Of a stretch of 64,000 bases of DNA, positions 4,174 through 49,610 are shown one piece after another. The position numbers and the translations under genes are program-made. Under the pieces are notes generated by a model. It made no database searches and was not told the origin of the DNA. It was given only the letters and a program-made list of their open reading frames with translations. Each line of letters begins with the position of its first letter. Position 1 is the first letter of the stretch. Origin of the DNA: Leptospira biflexa (GTDB lineage: Bacteria; Spirochaetota; UBA4802; UB4802); contig DYLU01000002.1 of NCBI GenBank assembly GCA_020721905.1, positions 11,314 to 75,313 on the forward strand. Reading direction: 5' to 3'.

Positions 4174-6855
4174 TTACTTATTTTTAGATTTCAGAATAAT
4201 CTCATCACCAACAACAAGCAGGATGTTATCAATATCAATTTTATCAGAAGAGGGATATGTAGCATTACAGGTAAGCCATATCCCTTTTTCATTACTAAGT
4301 GGTATATACAAGAGCACCGTATCAAAGTATAATCGATTATCCTTGTTCTTCTTGTCAATAAATCTGCTTGAATGGGAACAACCAAAGGCAATATATGACA
4401 TGATCCCATTTTTTGCAAGCATGTAGCGTAAATACAGTATTGCATCAAGCTGTGTGCCTTTCCCTGATCTAGAAAATTGCAAAAGCGATGTAGCTCTATA
4501 AGGGGTGGGATTTATGGTATATTGTTTCAGTTTCCCCATAAGCTCTGATATGATTTCTTCAAATGTCTTCCCGTTTAATTCAGTTTCAGTAAGAAAATAA
4601 TCTGCAATTTTAAAATGCAAACTTTCTTCATTAATCCATTCAATCAGGTTTTCAGATGTAAGCGCCATTATCATAAAATTCCTGTTATTATGTGCCGATA
4701 GTTCATAGGCATTAAATCTGATGTGCTGTATGCCATGCTCTTCTTTTGTAACATTGCCCTGCAATTCTGATACTATAACAGGCTCAACCTGTGAACCCAT
4801 AACAACAATATCCATATCAAATTGCGATAGATTATAATTCTGCTGGATGTGCACTACAGGAATTCCCTTGTTTATAATAAATGATAGTTCCACCAGGGCA
4901 TAGCTGTTCAGGTTTTTATCAAAACATGCCTTAATTCCCCTTTGCAGTGAATTGTTTAAATATTTTATTTTCTTTTTTTCAATCTTTCCGTTTTCACTAA
5001 CCAGGTATATTGTACATCCTGTTATTGTTACATCGCTACCAAAAGCATAATCATTTACCTGTGATGAACTGCCAGTATAATACAGGTCATAAATTGAACA
5101 ATATGCAGTATTATTAATAAATCGTAATGCATAACAAGAATACAGCAGGCCATTAGTTTTTCCTTGTATAGTTTCAAAGGCTAATCGTGAAAAAACATTT
5201 TGATACACATAATCATCAAAAGCATTCTTCAAATAATCACTATGCCATGGTATATCAGAAACTATCACCTCATGCTTCTTGCGGTACATGCTTCCATCAG
5301 ATTCTTCCAGATCAGCTATTGTTGCCAGCAATGCATATGCATGTGAATCAAATCCCCGGGCTATTCTTTTAAACAATACACTTTTTGCATCATTGTATCG
5401 CTTTAATGCCACGAGCGCATGTATATATTTATCAAAAAATCTACTTTCATTATTGTGCTCAACAACAGATACTATCGATCCAAACTGCTCATTCTGCTCA
5501 TAATATTGAATTAATAAAGCTGTAACTTTATCATCTGGGTCTGGTATTGATTCTAATATACTGATGGCTTTTTCAATGTCATGGTATGCTGTAATTTGAG
5601 CAACGATATAAGCAAGATCATTACTGTAAGGATACTCTTTTAACAAAGATTCAAGATTTGCTCTTTTATTAATCAGTACATCTTTTTCTCTATACAACAG
5701 ATAAATCAATAATGGTAGATAATGCCCTTGATTGGCATCAAAAGATTTCTTTAGATATATATAATCATAGTAGCTTTGCCATAATACTGATCTAAACTTT
5801 TCATTATTTTTTAGTAAACTTTGCATTACCAGCTCATATCCCAAAACCTTGTTTTCATATTTATATTTCATCAATAGAGATAAAAATCTGCAGGCTGCTA
5901 ACTCATTGTATGAGTGTAAAGCTTCTTTATAATATTTCAATGCTTCATAACTTTGCAGCGATTCATAAAAAAGCGCAAGTTTAAAAGCCGGATCATTGGA
6001 ACGCTGCTTATTATACTGTGTAAGCAATTGATTTTCATATTCATAATATGTTTCATACCATTGGACATCATGATAATATGAATTTTCTGTATCAGGTAAA
6101 TGTATACTCTGGTCAGTATCATCATAAAACTGTATTTTCAAAAACATGTCTTCTGCTAGTTTATAATATAGGGCAACTGTAAAGCCGCCTTCAGATTCTA
6201 TATGAAACATCCTGACCAGCTTTTTCTTATCCGTCAGAGCATTAACACATATTTTTTTCCCGTTAATATAACAAACATAATCCATATTTGAATAAATCCT
6301 GAGTGTAACGGGTACACTGGCTTTAAAAGACCCACTGCAAAGGCCAGTAGCGTTATACTCCTGAGTAAATTGCTTAACAGGGATAAAACCATTTTGATAT
6401 TGAAATACACGTACCTTGTTTTTACCTGATAAGAAATAAGGATTATTGGTGCATTGAAGAGCTGCAATGCTTTGCGGCATTTTTTCTTTGATATTATCGT
6501 ATATATCCCATCGATTGTTACCCTTAGTGGCGTCTTTTTGGTGTAACTCATCAATGAGAGTAACAATATCCTGAACATACAGCTTTTCAGCATCTGTATC
6601 AGCACTTCTGATTAATTCTTTAAGTAACAATACTGTCTTACTGACCCCTGCAACTTGTTGTATATGATGAATATCTGCCAGAATTAATGCAGGATCAGCT
6701 TTCCCTGATACTATTTCTTTTTCATACAGTTCTATTATATTGAGTGAATTGCCGTTACAGTATATTTGCTTACTGTCTTTACTGATAACAGGCAGAGCTT
6801 TTACAGGAACTATCGCCACCAGTACAATGGCCGTTACTATTAATAATTTATTCAT
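4174..6855 (-). CDS. large secreted hypothetical protein (893 aa); helical-repeat middle, possible DUF3857/pseudo-transglutaminase-like C-terminal part
   Basis: Signal peptide MNKLLIVTAIVLVAIVPVKALP, a Tyr/Leu-rich TPR-like helical region, and C-terminal GKGTQLDAILYLRYMLAKNGI. That segment resembles a transglutaminase-core helix but has Thr where the catalytic Cys would be. The gene starts 12 nt after the mnmE stop. Confidence 0.6.
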   Translation of the reverse strand: MNKLLIVTAIVLVAIVPVKALPVISKDSKQIYCNGNSLNIIELYEKEIVSGKADPALILADIHHIQQVAGVSKTVLLLKELIRSADTDAEKLYVQDIVTLIDELHQKDATKGNNRWDIYDNIKEKMPQSIAALQCTNNPYFLSGKNKVRVFQYQNGFIPVKQFTQEYNATGLCSGSFKASVPVTLRIYSNMDYVCYINGKKICVNALTDKKKLVRMFHIESEGGFTVALYYKLAEDMFLKIQFYDDTDQSIHLPDTENSYYHDVQWYETYYEYENQLLTQYNKQRSNDPAFKLALFYESLQSYEALKYYKEALHSYNELAACRFLSLLMKYKYENKVLGYELVMQSLLKNNEKFRSVLWQSYYDYIYLKKSFDANQGHYLPLLIYLLYREKDVLINKRANLESLLKEYPYSNDLAYIVAQITAYHDIEKAISILESIPDPDDKVTALLIQYYEQNEQFGSIVSVVEHNNESRFFDKYIHALVALKRYNDAKSVLFKRIARGFDSHAYALLATIADLEESDGSMYRKKHEVIVSDIPWHSDYLKNAFDDYVYQNVFSRLAFETIQGKTNGLLYSCYALRFINNTAYCSIYDLYYTGSSSQVNDYAFGSDVTITGCTIYLVSENGKIEKKKIKYLNNSLQRGIKACFDKNLNSYALVELSFIINKGIPVVHIQQNYNLSQFDMDIVVMGSQVEPVIVSELQGNVTKEEHGIQHIRFNAYELSAHNNRNFMIMALTSENLIEWINEESLHFKIADYFLTETELNGKTFEEIISELMGKLKQYTINPTPYRATSLLQFSRSGKGTQLDAILYLRYMLAKNGIMSYIAFGCSHSSRFIDKKNKDNRLYFDTVLLYIPLSNEKGIWLTCNATYPSSDKIDIDNILLVVGDEIILKSKNK

Positions 6856-13190: not shown

Positions 13191-13838
13191 TTATTCTTTA
13201 CACTTATACCCAACATTTCGTATGGTTTCTATTATATTATTAAACTCATCCCCCAATTTAATTCTAAGCCTTCTTATATGAACGTCAACCGTACGAGTAC
13301 CCCCAATATACTCAACCCCCCATATTTGTGAAAGTAACTCCTGACGTGTAAAAACTATACCTTTATTTTCCATTAAAAATTTAAGTAATTCAAATTCTTT
13401 ATATGTTAGCAATATATTGTCATTGTTTACTGTTACCGAATACTTTTCAGGCTCTATGGTAATATTGCCAACTTTGATAACCGAATCCTTTAATTCAATT
13501 TCAGCACCTATCAGACGATCAATACGCGCTTTTAATTCACCTTTTCTGAAAGGGAACACAATAAAATCATCAAAAAACCAGTCCCTGTTTACTGATTCTA
13601 AATATCCAGCCCGTACAATAAGTATGACTGGCAATCGCTGAAAACGCTTTCGAAGCTTTGAAAGATAAAACTGTGTATCGCTGATATCAATTTGCTCAGT
13701 ATCAAATAATGCTATATCAAATCCTTCATCCTTTAGAGTATTAATAGTACCATGAACACTTACATCTAAAATCTGAAGCATTCTTACTTCAAGAACCAAT
13801 TCCTTATTTTGTGTAATGAGTGCCGTTTTAATTTTCAT
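13191..13838 (-). CDS. OmpR/PhoB-type winged-helix regulator with degenerate (pseudo-)receiver domain
   Basis: The C-terminus LTYKEFELLKFLMENKGIVFTRQELLSQIWG...TRTVDVHIRRLRIKL is typical of the family. In the receiver, the DD pocket is replaced by QN (ALITQNKE), the conserved Thr is missing (ILIVRAG) and Lys is replaced by Phe (DDFIVFPF). Confidence 0.8.
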   Translation of the reverse strand: MKIKTALITQNKELVLEVRMLQILDVSVHGTINTLKDEGFDIALFDTEQIDISDTQFYLSKLRKRFQRLPVILIVRAGYLESVNRDWFFDDFIVFPFRKGELKARIDRLIGAEIELKDSVIKVGNITIEPEKYSVTVNNDNILLTYKEFELLKFLMENKGIVFTRQELLSQIWGVEYIGGTRTVDVHIRRLRIKLGDEFNNIIETIRNVGYKCKE

Positions 13839-15001
13839 TTTTTATTAACTAATGTTAAAAAAATATTCATATACCGTTCTGCTACATTTTCGGCATAAAA
13901 GGTTGTAATCTTTTTTTTATTATTTACAGAACAGTATTGATAGAGCTTTTTATCATTATAAAATTTCATAATACTTTCAGCACACTTTTCCACATCACCA
14001 ACATTAATGAGCATTGCATTTTCACCATGGATAAGAAAATCAACCTGCCCCCCATGGTTGGTAGCAACAATAGGCAATCCGCAATACATGGCTTCCATAA
14101 ACACAATGCCAAATCCTTCATGCATTGATGTAAGTACAAACAAATCAGATTGCGATAGATAGGCAAATTTTTTCTCGTCGGCAACAAATCCCATAAACTG
14201 CACTCTATCGTGTAATGACAATTCTTTCACAAGTGATTCTAAGTATTCCCTTTCAGGACCATCTCCCATAATGAGAAGTTTGATGGCAGGATTATCAAAA
14301 AGAGCTATCGCCCTTATAAGAATATCAATTGATTTACGCTTTATCAATCTTCCAATAGTTATACAGATAAAATCTTTTTCATGCAGCCCCAATTTTTTCC
14401 GTGATGTTTTTGGTATTACTGGCGGATGGAATGCTAACGGTATAATCTGAATTTCTTTTTTTGGTGCATAGTATTCTATTGCGTTATTGCGGGTATTTGA
14501 TGATTGTGCCACAATTACATCAGCTCTGTTAAGGAGAAAACGAACAACAGATTTAAAAAATCGACTTCGGTGAGGTGATATTTTTTTACTTGGATCATAA
14601 ATATCACCACCATGCAATGATAAAACATTTGGAATGCCAAATAACTTTGAAATTACATACCCTAGAGGGCCTGATGGAACAACAAAATGCGTATTGATAA
14701 CATCAAACTTATATTTTAAGGCAAGCGATAGTGCCCGTATAAGCCCTGCAGGCAGGTAGCTAAGCATTGAAATAAATGTTGCTGCATCCCTTGATTTTCT
14801 GAAAAAAATCTTTACCCTGTGCACATGAATCCCATTAATATTTTCATAGGAGGGTAACCCTTTAAATGACGAAGTGATGACATGCACATTTGCTGACTTC
14901 ACCCACTCCAATGCCAGGTCATATGTTGCAACACCCCCACCCCCCCCTAATGGAGGAAATTCATAATTTATAATTAATATATTAATCTTTTTTTCTTTCA
15001 T
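13835..15001 (-). CDS. GT4-family glycosyltransferase
   Basis: N-terminal FPPLGGGGG and the C-terminal EGFGIVFMEAMYCGLPIVATNHGG (E-x7-E region). The stop overlaps the regulator start as ATGA. Confidence 0.88.
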   Translation of the reverse strand: MKEKKINILIINYEFPPLGGGGGVATYDLALEWVKSANVHVITSSFKGLPSYENINGIHVHRVKIFFRKSRDAATFISMLSYLPAGLIRALSLALKYKFDVINTHFVVPSGPLGYVISKLFGIPNVLSLHGGDIYDPSKKISPHRSRFFKSVVRFLLNRADVIVAQSSNTRNNAIEYYAPKKEIQIIPLAFHPPVIPKTSRKKLGLHEKDFICITIGRLIKRKSIDILIRAIALFDNPAIKLLIMGDGPEREYLESLVKELSLHDRVQFMGFVADEKKFAYLSQSDLFVLTSMHEGFGIVFMEAMYCGLPIVATNHGGQVDFLIHGENAMLINVGDVEKCAESIMKFYNDKKLYQYCSVNNKKKITTFYAENVAERYMNIFLTLVNKK

Positions 15002-15196
15002 ACAAAATACTCCATCTTTAACAAAAAAGGTTAAGTTTTTCTCACACTAAAACATGCCTTTTATATTTCAAATACTATTTAATCGCGCATAGCTAAAACA
15101 ATCTTCCCCCTGAACAAACTATGCATGCTATAAAAATACATTCTGGAATAAATATCCGATATAAATTAAAAAATAATGTTTTGTTAAAAATAATAT

Positions 15197-15226
15197 TTGC
15201 CAAAATACATTAGAAGAAGGTACTAT
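15197..15226 (+). promoter_or_regulatory. candidate sigma70-type promoter for the lipoprotein/barrel pair
   Basis: TTGCCA, 18-nt spacer, TACTAT, about 85 nt upstream of ATG 15313. Confidence 0.25.
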
Positions 15227-15312
15227 ACTATAAACGCTAATGGGGAAAAATTCTATTTTATTACTAAAGGAAAAGGTTTTATCTTAATACTATCAAAAAA
15301 AGGTGGTGAATT

Positions 15313-15933
15313 ATGAAATTCTTTCAATTTTTAGCTATTATTACCACACTATCTTCATTATTTGCCTGTTCAACTATCGATGTAGCTTCTACCAATAAAC
15401 AGGCAATACAAAAAAGAATGAAGCGGGTTGCAGTATTTCCCTTTGACATAAAAGGTGCCGGCTGGGGAGATGAATTTTCAGATGCTATCTCACATCAATT
15501 TTTTAAAAGCGGAAAAGTTACTACCATTGAACGTGAAGCCATACAAAAAATTCTGCAGGAACAGCAGCTTTCTGCCTCTGGTTTAATTGACGATAAACAG
15601 GCTGTAAAAATTGGTAAATTTTTAGGTGCAGATGTTATCATCATTGGCCGTGGCTCTGCTTTACAGGCATACAGAAACAATAAGTTTGAACCCAACTGTA
15701 TTGATACTTTTACATTAAAAGCCATTAATACTGAAAATGGCGAAATTTTGCTAACCGTTCGCAAAGAACCAGGAAGGGCATGGGACTGGCGTTACAGAGC
15801 AAAGTTTTGCTGTGGATTAACATTAATCTGGAATCTCAATGATATTTTAATAGAGAGTTCACAATATGATGACATTGCAAAACAGATAGTTAAGCAAATC
15901 CTTGGTATTTTACAAGAAGAAAATAAAAGATGA
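15313..15933 (+). CDS. CsgG/LpoB-like lipoprotein (copy A)
   Basis: Lipobox LSSLFAC. The core VAVFPFD...IEREAIQKILQEQQLSASGLIDDKQAVKIGKFLGADVIIIG follows the CsgG-family pattern. It is a clear paralog of 46076-46699. AGGTGG SD. Confidence 0.6.
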   Translation: MKFFQFLAIITTLSSLFACSTIDVASTNKQAIQKRMKRVAVFPFDIKGAGWGDEFSDAISHQFFKSGKVTTIEREAIQKILQEQQLSASGLIDDKQAVKIGKFLGADVIIIGRGSALQAYRNNKFEPNCIDTFTLKAINTENGEILLTVRKEPGRAWDWRYRAKFCCGLTLIWNLNDILIESSQYDDIAKQIVKQILGILQEENKR

Positions 15934-16709
15934 TATTTAAATGTACAACATATACCAGCCTTTTAATCCTGGTTAGTATTGTTGCTTTTTTTTCTTCTGC
16001 CTATTCATCCGAATTTGATGAGCTGGACAAGCCTCCTGAAGGTATACACAAAGATCAGATAATACTTACAGGCTCAGTTTCTATTGGCATTCCTTACGGC
16101 GATCTTATTTCAGCCGAAGAAAAATTTACTAAAACTTCAACCTACACCTTTGAGAATGAAATAACTAAACTTATTTATCTATCACATTTAGCTTTTGGAT
16201 TAACAATGTCAGGAGAATATCTTCCTATCGATTATATTGGTATTCGCTCAAAACTAAGGCGCAGTGTTATAGTTCAGAATACAAATTTTGGCGCTGACTA
16301 TCAATCCTGGAAAAAAACACTGTACAGCGATTATTCTGTTTATTTTGGCCCATCTTTTCATGTTACTAATAGAAAGCCATGGGACATTAGTTTATCACCC
16401 ATGCTTGGCTATGTATTTGCTACTTATAAGCCAACTCCTATAGCCCGCGTACTTATTGATGGGTATATACCACCGCCAACACAACAGTTTTCAAGTATGA
16501 CCTATGGTGTTGATGTTATGCTCAGCATATTTTTCAGCGGGGGGCTTGTTTTCCAGATTGGTGGGGAATGGATACGTAACAATATACTATTTTCATCAAT
16601 ACCAGATGCCGTTAATCCACAAACAAACCAGATTTTTTATACAAAGAAAGATGCCACCATTGATTCCGTTCTTTTCTGTGTTTCAGCAGGTTACGCCTTC
16701 TATAATTAA
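15930..16709 (+). CDS. putative outer-membrane beta-barrel protein
   Basis: Signal peptide (...VAFFSSAYS), alternating-hydrophobicity strands rich in Tyr/Gly, and an aromatic C-terminus AGYAFYN. ATGA overlap with the lipoprotein gene. Confidence 0.5.
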   Translation: MIFKCTTYTSLLILVSIVAFFSSAYSSEFDELDKPPEGIHKDQIILTGSVSIGIPYGDLISAEEKFTKTSTYTFENEITKLIYLSHLAFGLTMSGEYLPIDYIGIRSKLRRSVIVQNTNFGADYQSWKKTLYSDYSVYFGPSFHVTNRKPWDISLSPMLGYVFATYKPTPIARVLIDGYIPPPTQQFSSMTYGVDVMLSIFFSGGLVFQIGGEWIRNNILFSSIPDAVNPQTNQIFYTKKDATIDSVLFCVSAGYAFYN

Positions 16710-16831
16710 TATATTTCAATTGTAATCACACTATGCAAAGATACAAATTCAATTTTCTATACATTAGCTGGACTTTGTCATATAATGCATAGTATTTCTA
16801 TTGTTTGCATCTACAATTATTTACCCGCATC

Positions 16832-17821
16832 TTATTCTATTACAGCATTGCCTGTATTAACAAGCATTGAGACGACACGTGCTGTAGTTAATTTATCCTT
16901 AGTCTTCAACTTTACAGGTAACCGCAAAAACTGATGCATACATCCTCTTCGTCTGTGTTCTAATGGGAAACTTCCATCATCAAATTGCTTCTTTATACAC
17001 TGATTAAATAACCGTATCCTGAACGCTTCAGCTGTATCGTCTAAAAAAAGTGAAAACTGAATGGCATCGATGCTATCATAGTCTAAATAAAATGGGTATC
17101 CCAGCAATTCATGATTATATGCAACTCTGCACCTGCAACCAGCTTCTGTAAATATGGCATCATTGCGGAACATATAGGCGATAGCTCTTTGAAAACTATC
17201 ATTGCAATTCCTGGTATCTATTTTCATCAGGGCTTTTGCACACATGACAGTTGCAACCGCACAACTTGGAGCATCAGTATGCACTAATCCAAGTCCTTTT
17301 CCAGTACGTTTAAAAAGCAAATATTTCAGTGAATCACCAACTGAACCGATTGGGCAATACAGCCAGCCACCATCATCCCTCTGATGAGACAGAATCCATT
17401 CTATACCTTTCTCCACTTCCTTTCCCTGATATCCGCTTTCCAGCAGGTAATACACTAACTGTCCGGTAATACATGCCGTTGAACAGAAAGGTTTCCAGTT
17501 TAAAGTAAATCCGCCATCATCCTGCTGAAATTTTAGTATTTCTTTAAGAATTGAGTACACAATATTATCACTGACATTACATCCACTTTCAACAAATGAT
17601 GAAAAAAACCACATAATCCCAATACCCGGTGCATCAAAATAATCATAGGCTTTTTTATTGAGAGAATGCAAACTGATTGAATTTACTATTACTTTGCTGT
17701 CTTTTTGTACATTATTTTCTTTTAAGGCAGGAATACTTTTTAATAAAAAAAATAATGATACTGCATCATCTGCCAACCATTGGATTACATCACCATTTAA
17801 ATATTTTGATTGAATCTTCAC
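16832..17821 (-). CDS. prenyltransferase/squalene-oxidase-repeat (alpha/alpha-toroid) protein
   Basis: Three QxxDGG-type repeats (QQDDGGFTLNW, HQRDDGGWLY, QFDDGSFPLEH). No signal peptide. GTG start. Confidence 0.65.
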   Translation of the reverse strand: MKIQSKYLNGDVIQWLADDAVSLFFLLKSIPALKENNVQKDSKVIVNSISLHSLNKKAYDYFDAPGIGIMWFFSSFVESGCNVSDNIVYSILKEILKFQQDDGGFTLNWKPFCSTACITGQLVYYLLESGYQGKEVEKGIEWILSHQRDDGGWLYCPIGSVGDSLKYLLFKRTGKGLGLVHTDAPSCAVATVMCAKALMKIDTRNCNDSFQRAIAYMFRNDAIFTEAGCRCRVAYNHELLGYPFYLDYDSIDAIQFSLFLDDTAEAFRIRLFNQCIKKQFDDGSFPLEHRRRGCMHQFLRLPVKLKTKDKLTTARVVSMLVNTGNAVIE

Positions 17822-45217: not shown

Positions 45218-45853
45218 TTACAGAGGATACCTAACCCCTAACCGTATTACCAGCCCTGACATATCCAGCTCTAAATCGCCGCTTTTAAGAGGTAAACTGC
45301 GATATCCAGCTTCAGCATAAAAATCAACCTTTGAATCAGCAGCTGGTTTTAACGAAGCACCAAAAAACAATTCCCACGAAAGTCCGCTAAAAAGTTTGGT
45401 AATGGAATCTGCAGTATATGACTTGCCTGTATTTGAGTCAGTAAAATCGGGCTGTGAATAATGTAATATCATGAATGAATAGCCCAGGCCAATGGTTATA
45501 AAAGGTGTTACATACAGTTTATCCTTTAAGTTTGGCAAGCGCACCTGTGCGTTGAACATCATGGGGACAATATAAGCATTGGTATCAGCCTTAACATCAA
45601 CAAATACAGTACCTTCCTGCTTAACACCTATTTTCCTGTCCCATCGTACCCATACAAATCCCGACTCAATCCCTGTCACAAAATAAGGATCAAGGAGCCA
45701 ACTATAGCGCAACGAAAGATCAAATCCATATTTGGATGGATCACTTGCGTATGATGTTCCTAACGCGCCATTTAATTCAGTGTTTGCACTAAAACCATTT
45801 ACAGTAGTTCCTATTACTATAAGTGTAAAAAATATAATAATTATTCTTTTCAT
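45218..45853 (-). CDS. outer-membrane beta-barrel protein (OmpW/porin-like small barrel)
   Basis: Signal peptide MKRIIIIFFTLIVIGTTVNGFSA, alternating strands, and terminal strand LVIRLGVRYPL. Confidence 0.65.
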   Translation of the reverse strand: MKRIIIIFFTLIVIGTTVNGFSANTELNGALGTSYASDPSKYGFDLSLRYSWLLDPYFVTGIESGFVWVRWDRKIGVKQEGTVFVDVKADTNAYIVPMMFNAQVRLPNLKDKLYVTPFITIGLGYSFMILHYSQPDFTDSNTGKSYTADSITKLFSGLSWELFFGASLKPAADSKVDFYAEAGYRSLPLKSGDLELDMSGLVIRLGVRYPL

Positions 45854-46075
45854 AAAAAACCTCTCTTGCCAATGTTTTTATATATTGTATATATTGTATG
45901 GCCCTGTGTCAACATCAATATGTGTTGCTCCACTTCAAACTTGAACTTGCAATTTTTATTTATTATCAATACATAAAAATTGTTGATTATTTACTTGATT
46001 TAAATAAAGCTTGTTACATCATCTATTCAATAACCAAAAATGTCGTAATATATTATTTATTCAAGGAATATCATT

Positions 46076-46699
46076 ATGAAAAATTTAACACTGCTTTCAA
46101 TATTTCTTTTTATGCTTTCATGTACATCCGTAGACAAATCAGTGTACATAAAAGATAAACAGGCATTGCAAAAGCCAATACGCATTGCAGTTTTAACCTT
46201 TGTTGACGCACCCAAATACCCTGGATCGGGAATAAGTATTGCTGATGCATTGACCAATGAACTGGTTCAGATATCAAATTGGGATCTGGTGGAACGTTCA
46301 CAGATAGAGAAGATTTTAAAAGAAAAATCATTTGATATGACTGGATTAACCGATTCTCAGATTACCGATATTGGCAAATTAGCAAAAACTGACTATATCA
46401 TAGTGGGTAGTGTTTCAGATTATTATTATGACAGGCAATTTTATATTGTACCAAAAACAAAGATAGCATTCAATGCCCGCATTATCAATACACAAACAGG
46501 CAGCATTGTAGGCACTTTACGCTATAACCGTGAAACCAATAAGAATGCATGGTGCGGATGCTGTCTTTTAGGATGGTATTATCTGCCAGTGCTGTTGTTG
46601 ACTGATCAGAATATTAATACGGATGTAAGCAAAGCTGCTCGTGATGTGGTAAGAACTATCAATAAGGATGTGAGTGGCAAAAGGAGCTGTTGCATATAA
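46076..46699 (+). CDS. CsgG/LpoB-like lipoprotein (copy B)
   Basis: Lipobox FMLSC. IAVLTFVD...VERSQIEKILKEKSFDMTGLTDSQITDIGKLAKTDYIIVG aligns by eye with copy A along its whole length. Contains the WCGCCLLGWYY insert and ends ...RSCCI. Confidence 0.6.
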   Translation: MKNLTLLSIFLFMLSCTSVDKSVYIKDKQALQKPIRIAVLTFVDAPKYPGSGISIADALTNELVQISNWDLVERSQIEKILKEKSFDMTGLTDSQITDIGKLAKTDYIIVGSVSDYYYDRQFYIVPKTKIAFNARIINTQTGSIVGTLRYNRETNKNAWCGCCLLGWYYLPVLLLTDQNINTDVSKAARDVVRTINKDVSGKRSCCI

Positions 46700-47254: not shown

Positions 47255-49075
47255 ATGAAAATTAGCAAATTCCTTTTTGCAACGTATATCTTCATTATAT
47301 TCATGATTTTTCCCACATTTTATGGATTCGCTGATACTACCATTGCAATCCATCTTGATCAGGAAATATTAAATGTAAAACCAAATACAAAAGCCTGTGC
47401 TATTGTACACATAGATTTGCCCACAAAAGGCTATATCTATGCCAACCCCAAAGGTGAGGGAACCGGAAAAGCAACAACCGCTAATGCAAAAGCAACCCAA
47501 CATATAGTACCAGGAAAAACGCGCTATCTTCCCGGAACCTTTTATATTTCACCTCTTGATAGCAAACCGGTGTATATTTATAAAAAGCACACCTCGCTCT
47601 GTATTCCATTCACAATAAATACAGCACAAGAAGGCTCATATTCTTTATCATTCATAATTGAGGCTTTATATTGCAATGATGTATCCTGCACCCCCGTACT
47701 GCAAACTGTTACCCAGATAATTAACGTTGATAAATCAGCACCTGATTTTGATACATCATTATGCACCACATATAAAGAGCCTGACGATATAATTCACACA
47801 GTAAATAAAGAAGACACGTCCGGTCATTTTAATATAATAGATGCAGGTGGTAGCTCAACACTGAGTTTGTTTCATGCAATCATTTTTGGAATTCTTGCAG
47901 GCTTTTTACTCAACTTTATGCCCTGTGTACTTCCTGTAATAAGCCTTAAAATTTTAAGTTTTATATCATATGGCAACAACAAACCAGGGAAGGTAAGGAT
48001 AATGGGATTGCTGTTTACCGCAGGGATATTAACATCTTTCTTGGCACTGGCTTCGCTTGCAGCATTTGCCGGTTATAACTGGGGTGAGCTTTTTCAACAT
48101 AAAATTTTTATTATTATCATGGCAGCCATAATTTTTGCACTGGCTTTATCGTTTTTTGGTGTGTATACATTCAATATTCCACAGCTCTCACTATTGCAAA
48201 GTGCCAATGTCTATTTAGATTCATATTTCAAAGGAATAGTTGCCACACTTCTTGCTACCCCCTGCAGTGGTCCTTTTTTGGGGGCTACACTGGCATGGTC
48301 ATTAACGCAGCATCCTGTAATAATTTTTATAATTTTTATTAACATTGGTCTTGGCATGTCACTTCCATACCTGCTTTTATCATTTTATCCGTCACTTATC
48401 AGATTCATCCCCAAATCCGGAGACTGGATGATAACATTTGAGCAGTTTATGGGATTTTTAATGGTTGCCACCACCATCTACCTTATATCATTACTTGATG
48501 CAGGTACATTGACAACAACTATCTGGTTTTTGTTACTTGTATCCATTGGATTATGGCAATGGGGGCGGTTTGGGAATATAACAAAACCATCAATACAGCG
48601 AATAATTTCATTTGTTGTGCTTGTGCTACTTGTTGTTTCTGCTAGCATGATATTTTCCAGCAAAAAAACATCAAAAGCTGAAATAACCTACAAGCCTTTT
48701 GACTGGGAGGAGATAGTTCATAACAATACATCACAGGTTTCAATGGTCATTTTTACTGCTGAGTGGTGCCCCAACTGCAAATTCGTTGAGGCTACAGCAT
48801 TATCATCTTCCAGTATTATTGAATTCATATATAAAAATAATATCTCTGTCTACAAAGCCGATATCACCACAAAGAATCCGCCAGCAGAGAGCATATTACT
48901 ACAACTTGGTTCACGATCGATACCGTTTGTGGCTATCTTCCCTTCAGGAGGTAATTTTTCACAGCCTGTTATACTGCGTGATATTTATACAGCAAAAGAT
49001 TTATTGAAGGCTTTGCAAAAAGCCCTGGAATTGAGTAAACAATCAGAGATCCCTCAACTGATGACTATCCCTTAA
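47255..49075 (+). CDS. dsbD: thiol:disulfide interchange protein DsbD-like (N-terminal domain + CcdA-type membrane core + thioredoxin-like domain)
   Basis: Membrane-core Cys motifs NFMPCVLPV and TPCSGPFLG, and a C-terminal thioredoxin motif AEWCPNC. GAAGGAG SD. Confidence 0.85.
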   Translation: MKISKFLFATYIFIIFMIFPTFYGFADTTIAIHLDQEILNVKPNTKACAIVHIDLPTKGYIYANPKGEGTGKATTANAKATQHIVPGKTRYLPGTFYISPLDSKPVYIYKKHTSLCIPFTINTAQEGSYSLSFIIEALYCNDVSCTPVLQTVTQIINVDKSAPDFDTSLCTTYKEPDDIIHTVNKEDTSGHFNIIDAGGSSTLSLFHAIIFGILAGFLLNFMPCVLPVISLKILSFISYGNNKPGKVRIMGLLFTAGILTSFLALASLAAFAGYNWGELFQHKIFIIIMAAIIFALALSFFGVYTFNIPQLSLLQSANVYLDSYFKGIVATLLATPCSGPFLGATLAWSLTQHPVIIFIIFINIGLGMSLPYLLLSFYPSLIRFIPKSGDWMITFEQFMGFLMVATTIYLISLLDAGTLTTTIWFLLLVSIGLWQWGRFGNITKPSIQRIISFVVLVLLVVSASMIFSSKKTSKAEITYKPFDWEEIVHNNTSQVSMVIFTAEWCPNCKFVEATALSSSSIIEFIYKNNISVYKADITTKNPPAESILLQLGSRSIPFVAIFPSGGNFSQPVILRDIYTAKDLLKALQKALELSKQSEIPQLMTIP

Positions 49076-49085
49076 AGGTATACCA

Positions 49086-49610
49086 ATGCAATCACTCAAA
49101 TATTACCATGAACTAATACAAAAAGTTGATGCATTTACAGACTCTGTCGTTTCAAAGTACGGCTACCAATTGCATTGCAGAGAGGGCTGCAGCAGTTGTT
49201 GTATACTGGAAAGTGTAATGCCCGTTGAACTTGTATCAATAGCACAATGGTTTGCAAAACAACCTGAATCAATACGATCTATAATTAAACAGGGAGATAC
49301 ACATTTCTGTATGTTTTTGCATAACAATAGATGCATTATCTATCCCATAAGACCTGTAATTTGCAGAACCCATGGCTACCCGGTCTTCATCCATAACAGT
49401 GTTGATATCTGCCCATTAAATAATAATATAAGCTTTGAACCAGAGTATATTCTTAATTTAGAGAACTGTAATACAATGCTTGCAGCTATTAATATTTTAT
49501 TCATTAAGGAAGTACAGATTCCTGCATTACAGACAGAACGCATTAATCTACGGGCGTTTTTTCAAAGCTCTGAAACCGATATCCTTTCTATAGTGCATAC
49601 CCTCAAATGA
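49086..49610 (+). CDS. YkgJ-family cysteine-cluster protein (second copy)
   Basis: CREGCSSCC, then CMFLHNNRCIIYPIRPVICRTHG. The 3' end overlaps the purD 3' end by 63 nt. Confidence 0.65.
   Translation: MQSLKYYHELIQKVDAFTDSVVSKYGYQLHCREGCSSCCILESVMPVELVSIAQWFAKQPESIRSIIKQGDTHFCMFLHNNRCIIYPIRPVICRTHGYPVFIHNSVDICPLNNNISFEPEYILNLENCNTMLAAINILFIKEVQIPALQTERINLRAFFQSSETDILSIVHTLK

Follow-up and report, generated by a model that had tools for sequence, protein, structure and literature searches.

A putative pair of outer-membrane proteins, a PelC-fold lipoprotein and a small beta-barrel, in uncultivated Leptospirales-like spirochaetes

In Pseudomonas, the lipoprotein PelC and the outer-membrane protein PelB form the export complex through which the Pel exopolysaccharide crosses the outer membrane (PDB 5t0z, 5t10, 5t11 and 9h80; PMC12141448). 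PelC carries a conserved C-terminal tryptophan, Trp-149, that reaches into the bilayer, sandwiches the acyl anchors and is indispensable for assembling the PelC ring on PelB (PMC12141448). Among named systems, PelC-PelB is the closest to a gene pair that we analyzed in a 64,000-nucleotide (nt) stretch of DNA from Leptospira biflexa (GTDB lineage Spirochaetota; UBA4802; UB4802; GenBank assembly GCA_020721905.1, contig DYLU01000002.1, positions 11,314 to 75,313 of the forward strand; hereafter, the window), although the resemblance is at the level of fold only. The best reading of this pair, located at positions 15313-16709 of the window, is a two-gene operon encoding two outer-membrane proteins of an uncultivated Leptospirales-like spirochaete, a lipoprotein (lipoA) and a beta-barrel (barrelA). 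Furthermore, we give an even chance to the possibility that the lipoprotein is a clade-specific accessory that lies flat against the outer membrane, on the periplasmic side, and associates with the barrel in a structural or tethering complex.

The gene pair and the barrel family

The features of the locus, in window coordinates, are the following.

15299-15312, plus strand: ribosome-binding region of lipoA, AAAGGTGGTGAATT, with a Shine-Dalgarno-like AGGTGG, read from the sequence
15313-15933, plus strand: lipoA, predicted outer-membrane lipoprotein of 206 amino acids (aa), with the signal peptide at residues 1-18 and the lipidated cysteine at residue 19 (Cys19)
Residues ~20-151 of lipoA: predicted core of the PelC/LpoB/TolB-N-type alpha/beta fold, followed by a C-terminal helical extension
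15781-15852, plus strand: Cys-Cys element of lipoA, W157-D-W-R-Y-R-A-K-F-C-C-G-L-T-L-I-W-N-L-N-D-I-L-I, aromatic and basic
15930-15933, plus strand: ATGA overlap, in which the ATG of barrelA lies on the TGA of lipoA, likewise read from the sequence
15930-16709, plus strand: barrelA, 259 aa, predicted 8-stranded outer-membrane beta-barrel with a signal peptide at approximately residues 1-27
16014-16043, plus strand: N-terminal peptide of barrelA (residues 29-38, F-D/E-E-L-D-K-P-P-E-G), predicted to be periplasmic and to follow directly on the signal-peptide cleavage site
Residues 44-56, 84-100, 103-118, 128-144, 151-166, 185-201, 206-220 and 241-257 of barrelA: beta-strands of the AlphaFold2 model

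Both open reading frames (ORFs), as well as two further ones discussed below (lipoB and barrelB), lie at the coordinates given in an earlier sequence-only reading of the window, and the lipobox and ATGA overlap that it described are both present. The lipobox, LFAC, stands at the end of the signal peptide, with positions 15367-15369 encoding Cys19. At 4 nt 5' of the lipoA start stands a Shine-Dalgarno-like AGGTGGTGA, in the ribosome-binding region that ends the 311-nt divergent intergenic region between lipoA and a GT4 glycosyltransferase gene; the barrelA ATG has no Shine-Dalgarno sequence in front of it. Because homologs of lipoA and barrelA form 65 and 53 clusters, respectively, in a database of 5.8 billion proteins, both are evidently real genes rather than chance ORFs. 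The named sources of these homologs are nearly all metagenome-assembled genomes (MAGs) of Spirochaetota, and one of the barrelA clusters is 100% identical to the protein from the window. A promoter scan of positions 14900-16950 yielded 12 sites, no more than in shuffled sequence (9.2 +/- 3.4 expected), and we therefore assigned no promoter; the sole terminator-like hairpin in the same interval falls within lipoA.

The AlphaFold2 model of barrelA, for which an alignment of 36 sequences was used as input, has a mean predicted local distance difference test score (pLDDT) of 90.9 and a predicted template modeling (TM) score of 0.80, and consists of eight strands of 13-17 residues each, connected by short turns on one side and, on the opposite side, by long loops. 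Foldseek comparison with the PDB retrieved OmpA-TM, Ail, OprG, OmpW, NspA and OmpX with E-values from 5e-7 to 1e-4, TM-scores normalized to the target of 0.55-0.67 and a probability of 1.00 to each of OmpA, Ail, OprG, OmpW, NspA and OmpX. By its predicted structure, barrelA is an 8-stranded outer-membrane barrel of the OmpA/OmpW/OmpX type, and the suggestion that the 259-aa protein is a small barrel is thus borne out by the model and by the Foldseek matches. No Pfam or NCBIfam match was obtained for barrelA at E-values up to 1 (OmpA_membrane, OmpW, OMP_b-brl and Ail_Lom were all absent), and the barrelA family profile gave no meaningful match to PDB sequences.

The full HMMER profile search of 1.84 billion representatives at 50% identity returned 45 relatives of barrelA, 26 of them at E-values up to 1e-30. 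A scan of one genome per GTDB species with the degenerate motif F[ED]ELDKPP detected relatives in 63 species, all of them uncultivated MAGs of Spirochaetota, Leptospirales or Leptospiraceae; this barrel-centered count is biased, given that the motif missed variant barrels, such as those with FEELELPPEG in loci L067 and L069. As there are only 45 relatives and all 63 species in the scan belong to Spirochaetota, the barrelA family is small and restricted to this lineage; it belongs to a well-known structural class, in which it forms a sequence family that is new.

The most conspicuous feature of the family is the N-terminal peptide. Averaged over residues 29-43, the frequency of the top residue across 68 barrels is 0.91, the highest of any stretch longer than a few residues; only the four-residue periplasmic turn T3 (F-S-G-G) ranks above it, at 0.94. 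The peptide is invariant or nearly so in these 68 proteins, which are otherwise only ~40% identical, and the variants found were FEELELPPEG and DFAELDKPPEG. At the opposite end, barrelA terminates in SAGYAFYN, and the last strand of the family ends in G-Y-A-F-(S/Y)-N, with G254, Y255 and A256 invariant and F257 present in at least 90% of the family alignment. As a candidate C-terminal beta-signal, this motif is rich in aromatic residues, although it closes with N or H in place of F or W.

Conservation of the pairing

The sequence-only reading had called for a survey of related genomes for adjacent lipoprotein and barrel genes, and this adjacency is indeed conserved, including in relatives with other flanking genes. 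When metagenomes were scanned with the lipoA alignment, 26 loci were obtained, in 23 of which a barrel gene is located directly downstream; two of the others are cut by contig ends and one is a distant partial relative, so that a barrel is present in 23 of the 24 informative loci (contig-end cuts left out). When seven lipoA-family proteins outside the first set of loci were looked up, five had a barrelA homolog immediately downstream. The pair is intact despite changed flanks in L067 and L069, with acylphosphatase, pta and ackA genes downstream, and in L070, which has no upstream glycosyltransferase gene. The ATGA-type overlap (-4 nt) occurs in 16 distinct loci including the window, and the spacing in the other linked loci ranges from -1 to +85 nt.

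Viewed from the side of the barrel, the association does not hold up as an obligate one. In addition to the window itself, a lipoA homolog is present in 19 of the 63 barrel-bearing species loci, always directly upstream and on the same strand, whereas the other 44 contain the barrel without the lipoprotein. In a neighbor-joining tree of the barrels, the lipoprotein-linked loci are found in one major clade, where they account for 26 of the 31 tips (extra loci from the later look-ups included), and barrels of the second major clade never occur with the lipoprotein, being encoded there either alone or behind the dehydrogenase gene described below. The pairing is therefore asymmetric, with the lipoprotein nearly always next to the barrel and the barrel often without the lipoprotein, and it is the lipoprotein that depends evolutionarily on the barrel, not the reverse.

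Several observations weigh against a complex or speak for an alternative to which we assign a substantial, if minority, probability: the two proteins might merely be co-transcribed outer-membrane components with independent functions, the lipoprotein gene having been inserted, in one lineage, before an existing barrel gene and kept there by inheritance and a shared promoter. First, the barrel is encoded without the lipoprotein in the 44 loci, and in 14 species its gene lies directly behind a gene for 3-hydroxyacyl-CoA dehydrogenase (Pfam 3HCDH_N and 3HCDH; at approximately 5100-6000 in each of L009, L013, L016, L017, L022, L028, L031, L039, L048, L049, L051, L055, L057 and L061), with a spacing of -4 to +9 nt in the 12 of these 14 in which the barrel start is clear. 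Given that the barrel gene is found so tightly behind the gene for an unrelated cytoplasmic enzyme, tight coupling alone is no evidence of partnership. Second, even within the linked clade, five barrels in two lineages (L018 and L014/L023/L032/L033) have lost the lipoprotein with the same flanks and no obvious change, and two of the seven looked-up lipoA homologs, P0044 and P0057, have no barrel neighbor. Third, the linked loci come mostly from related genomes with broadly conserved gene order, so that part of the adjacency is simply inheritance. Fourth, the N-terminal peptide and the periplasmic turns of the barrel are equally conserved with or without the lipoprotein, and comparison of the linked and unlinked clades revealed no lipoprotein-specific signature on the periplasmic face, the positions compared being phylogenetically non-independent. 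Eight positions of barrelA (85, 89, 134, 138, 192, 216, 230 and 244; approximately 16182-16663 in the window) are conserved at 90% or more in linked barrels only; in this phylogenetically non-independent sample, they lie in the outer half and in loop L4 rather than on the periplasmic face. Finally, the paralog lipoB is found in wholly different contexts, as described below.

Points against independence of the two proteins are the rarity of lipoA-family genes apart from the barrel, in the metagenome loci and look-ups alike, and the persistence of the pair in L067, L069 and L070, where the flanks have changed. Furthermore, the 4-nt overlap ties translation of the barrel to that of the lipoprotein in the 16 loci, with no separate Shine-Dalgarno sequence.

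In the dehydrogenase loci, an outer-membrane protein gene is thus translationally coupled to the gene for a cytoplasmic fatty-acid enzyme. An apparent tandem duplication of the barrel in approximately 14 loci was rejected: the upstream gene is the 3-hydroxyacyl-CoA dehydrogenase gene, which had been mis-joined in single-linkage clustering via a fused ORF. Separately, the orphan lipoA homolog P0044 (L066:5001-10639) has pelG and a gene for a pelF-like DUF3492 glycosyltransferase at a distance of ~3 kb. The pel-like genes belong to a different transcription unit on the other strand, with three genes in between, and the link is a weak one, although PelC is the best structural match of lipoA.

A second lipoprotein gene and a second barrel gene adjoin each other elsewhere in the window.

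45218-45853, minus strand: barrelB, probable small outer-membrane barrel of 211 aa
46076-46699, plus strand: lipoB, lipoprotein of 207 aa with the lipobox MLSC, AWCGCC, the hydrophobic stretch WYYLPVLLL and a C-terminal SCCI

The sequence-only reading had taken these genes for a recurrence of the pairing, with paralogous lipoproteins and barrels that were not obviously homologous. The two lipoproteins are paralogs (30% identity over 186 aa, E 9e-19) and the two barrels show no sequence similarity, just as it had described; barrelB scores 23.6 bits with Pfam OMP_b-brl, under the cut-off of 28.7. The recurrence itself does not stand. The genes lipoB and barrelB are transcribed divergently, with 222 nt between them, and thus are not an operon. 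Three lipoB homologs, P0132, P0134 and P0136 (57%, 54% and 61% identity), are found in three unrelated contexts, none with a barrel nearby, and adjacency to barrelB is kept only in a congener (P0129 in L076; 85% identity). Because the contexts of lipoB differ in this way among relatives, its position next to barrelB is a coincidence: the lipoprotein alone was duplicated, and lipoB and barrelB, each of a kind common among envelope genes, adjoin by chance, so that 45218-46699 is no second instance of the module. No further paralogs of lipoA, barrelA, lipoB or barrelB were found within the window.

The lipoB family retains A-W-x-G-C-C, the hydrophobic W-Y-Y-L-P-V-L-L-L and a C-terminal K-G-C-(C/L), and lipoB is cysteine-rich for an exported protein, with CGCC at residues 160-163 in addition to the C-terminal SCCI. 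Approximately 550 nt downstream of lipoB, within 47255-49610, are genes for a DsbD-like thiol-disulfide transporter (DsbD_TM and thioredoxin domains, 606 aa) and a CxxCxxCC-domain protein, an arrangement that is repeated with lipoB in the congener L076. A DsbD_TM gene is also present ~3.7 kb from the lipoA-barrel pair in L070.

Fold and placement of the lipoprotein

The AlphaFold2 model of lipoA (pLDDT 81.2) comprises a compact alpha/beta domain followed by three C-terminal helices. Its first beta-strand spans residues 22-26, three residues past the lipidated Cys19, and the sequence CSTIDVA is conserved across the family. In structural comparisons, lipoA has a PelC-type fold, with PelC as the nearest solved relative, and CsgG is not the closest. 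The lipoA family profile recovered no CsgG or PelC chain from the PDB, nor anything else meaningful, at E-values up to 1, and the PelC family was not among the Pfam or NCBIfam matches of lipoA at the same threshold. Judged from the model, the core of lipoA has the alpha/beta fold shared by PelC, LpoB, TolB-N and the CsgG core, which would place the protein in a broad class of outer-membrane-associated, often ring-forming lipoproteins. Within this well-known fold class, lipoA represents a new family.

Beyond the core lies the Cys-Cys element, which had been described as an insert. The two cysteines are real and conserved (C166-C167, nt 15808-15813; C166 in at least 90% of 35 family members), but the Pfam LpoB match stops at residue 146, and the element is therefore not an insert but part of a C-terminal extension past the LpoB-like core. 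The family consensus reads A-W157-D-W-R-Y-R-x-K-F-C166-C167-x-L-T-L-I-W, and W157 is invariant in 37 sequences, lipoB included. The aromatic, basic and hydrophobic composition of the element suggests a location at the membrane interface, and the parallel between W157 and the membrane-immersed Trp-149 of PelC is suggestive.

In the complex that we propose, the acyl chains of the lipoprotein and its Trp/Cys-Cys element would keep it flat against the outer membrane's inner leaflet, and it would associate with the barrel, perhaps in oligomeric form like PelC beneath PelB. Because an 8-stranded barrel has no usable lumen, the complex would have an envelope-structural or tethering role and would not act as a secretion pore. 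A more elaborate version of this arrangement, which we regard as speculative and on balance unlikely, is a PelC-like ring, stabilized by the acyl chains, the invariant tryptophan and perhaps Cys-Cys disulfides between subunits, that captures a poreless 8-stranded barrel. Such a minimal "ring plus anchor barrel", unknown outside spirochaetes, could tether or organize the outer membrane of spirochaetes, which is unusually loose, with FEELDKPPEG serving as the docking element for a second, universal periplasmic partner.

Alternatively, the lipoprotein might be exposed at the cell surface, with the barrel as its export or tethering partner, similar to the passage of RcsF through OmpA/OmpC, or to a Slam-type or LptE/LptD-type lock. 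Spirochaetes send many lipoproteins to the cell surface, and such an orientation would fit the location of the linked-only barrel positions in the outer half and loop L4. Nevertheless, we consider it improbable: these clade-specific positions are phylogenetically non-independent, an 8-stranded barrel offers essentially no lumen through which a chain could be threaded, lipoA has no long N-terminal linker, its first strand following so closely on Cys19, and the nearest folds, namely, PelC, LpoB, TolB-N and FlgT, are all periplasmic.

More conventional identities for lipoA are suggested by profile matches. The CsgG and LpoB profile searches proposed in the sequence-only reading both gave scores above the Pfam cut-offs. 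With Pfam CsgG (PF03783, cut-off 20.8), lipoA scores 39.9 bits and lipoB 45.3 bits, and the NCBI names of lipoA homologs include "curli assembly protein CsgG" and "CsgG/HfaB family", all of which would fit a true oligomeric channel for secretion, of the CsgG/HfaB type, to which the barrel would be accessory. However, the aligned part of the 210-position profile is confined to positions 36-97 for lipoA, approximately 30% of its length (10-101 for lipoB), no CsgG chain was among the PDB matches of the family profile, and there are no csgA/B/E/F-like genes nearby. In particular, the AlphaFold2 model of lipoA has no extended transmembrane beta-hairpins of the kind that line the CsgG channel, which effectively refutes this reading at the level of predicted structure and leaves it a very slim probability. 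The "curli assembly protein CsgG" names on these spirochaetal proteins are, on the evidence of the model, an over-annotation.

The match to Pfam LpoB (PF13036; 30.9 bits against a cut-off of 22.3) might point to an LpoB-like activator of a class A penicillin-binding protein (PBP), but this is just as hard to credit, considering the score of 30.5 bits with the NCBIfam LpoB equivalog TIGR02722, far under its cut-off of 110.55, the absence of a long disordered linker such as the one with which LpoB spans the periplasm to PBP1b (the fold of lipoA begins at residue 22), the lack of an adjacent PBP gene, and the barrel gene as the consistent partner of lipoA. Thus, both identities can be set aside: lipoA is not a curli channel like CsgG, and not a PBP activator like LpoB.

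Neighboring genes and comparison with known systems

The neighbors of lipoA and barrelA in the window encode a GT4 glycosyltransferase, a response regulator, a DbpA-domain protein, a squalene-hopene-cyclase-like protein, a TPR protein and PPDK. Scans of the whole window for Rfam families and for tRNAs gave no matches. Two of the neighboring genes stand out in the comparison of loci.

13191-13838, minus strand: OmpR/PhoB-type regulator next to the GT4 gene, with a Trans_reg_C match
16832-17821, minus strand: squalene-hopene-cyclase-like protein, 329 aa, with the QW-type motifs QQDDGGF, QRDDGGW and QFDDGSF

The N-terminal half of the regulator matches only the atypical GlnR-type receiver (PF21695), so that the protein may be an orphan, phosphorylation-independent response regulator. 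Together with the GT4 gene, it is conserved upstream of the lipoprotein in the linked clade. The 16832-17821 protein matches squalene-hopene cyclase weakly (PDB 2sqc at E 7.6e-8; the score with Pfam SQHop_cyclase_C stays below the cut-off), and its gene is the most conserved neighbor of the barrel, lying convergently and directly downstream in approximately 50 of the 63 species loci across all upstream contexts, which makes it far more constant beside the barrel than the lipoprotein gene. We did not adopt this protein as a partner in the system, as it has no signal peptide and appears to be cytoplasmic. Elsewhere in the window, two pairs of long same-strand ORFs overlap by approximately 110 nt each (25724-27049/26940-28037 on the minus strand and 29555-31432/31323-32636 on the plus strand), probably reflecting over-extended start codons in the mechanically generated ORF list.

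Taken together, the predicted structures imply that a set of spirochaetal proteins labeled "curli assembly protein CsgG" or "CsgG/HfaB family" would be lipoproteins of the PelC/LpoB fold on the periplasmic face of the outer membrane, not secretion channels. The barrels make up a small family of 8-stranded outer-membrane proteins that had not been filed before; its N-terminal peptide is strikingly invariant, and it is found only in uncultivated Leptospirales-like spirochaetes. If the proposed complex is real, PelBC would no longer be the single case in which a PelC-fold lipoprotein sits on a barrel, the barrel being poreless in this second one, and the complex would provide a handle on the poorly understood architecture of the spirochaetal outer membrane. 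At present, the practical impact of this lineage-specific envelope protein pair is modest, as the organisms that encode it have so far resisted cultivation.

Among described small barrels, the N-terminal domain of OmpA, OmpW/OprG, OmpX/Ail and NspA resemble barrelA in the signal peptide, the (predicted) eight antiparallel strands, the short periplasmic turns and the longer external loops. Unlike them, barrelA is longer (259 aa), has strands of 13-17 residues and structured loops L1 and L3, and belongs to none of their sequence families, and the invariant FEELDKPPEG peptide is not known from the OmpA, OmpW, OmpX and NspA families.

Among lipoproteins, LpoB (PF13036, TIGR02722), which activates PBP1b by binding through the UB2H domain, is similarly located at the outer membrane, whereas lipoA falls short of the LpoB equivalog, has no long flexible linker and has a different genetic partner. 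CsgG/HfaB (PF03783), of curli and holdfast secretion, has the same alpha/beta core in a lipoprotein, with a Pfam score above the cut-off, but lipoA, modeled without transmembrane hairpins, would be unable to build the 36-stranded channel of CsgG, and no curli or holdfast genes (csgE/F/A/B, hfaA/D) are among the neighbors of lipoA and barrelA. LptE/LptD and RcsF/OmpA likewise unite a lipoprotein with a barrel, in their encoding or their assembly; however, LptE sits as a plug inside the 26-stranded LptD, an arrangement that an 8-stranded barrel cannot accommodate, RcsF differs from lipoA in fold and has a long threading linker, and neither pair is encoded as an overlapping operon. Literature searches on CsgG-like lipoproteins in Leptospira or spirochaetes, and on LpoB, PelC, CsgG and TolB jointly, did not yield the lipoA family.

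The conclusion of the sequence-only reading that the family matches no nameable module was half right, as PelC with PelB can be named as the nearest analog at the fold level. Similar to lipoA, PelC is a small lipoprotein whose gene is coupled to that of an outer-membrane barrel, and it has a conserved tryptophan near the C-terminus (Trp-149 in PelC, W157 in lipoA). PelC forms a dodecameric ring, and its fold lies immediately at the inner leaflet of the outer membrane, as that of lipoA is predicted to do. There is no detectable sequence similarity between the two, and lipoA has the additional Cys-Cys helical extension of ~50 residues. The partners differ as well: barrelA has eight strands and no TPR domain, whereas PelB combines a 16-stranded porin with a TPR scaffold, and pelA, pelD, pelE, pelF and pelG are all absent from the surroundings of 15313-16709. 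The pairing of lipoA with barrelA is a lineage-specific variation on the lipoprotein-plus-barrel theme, for which we infer a complex of the two proteins at the outer membrane.

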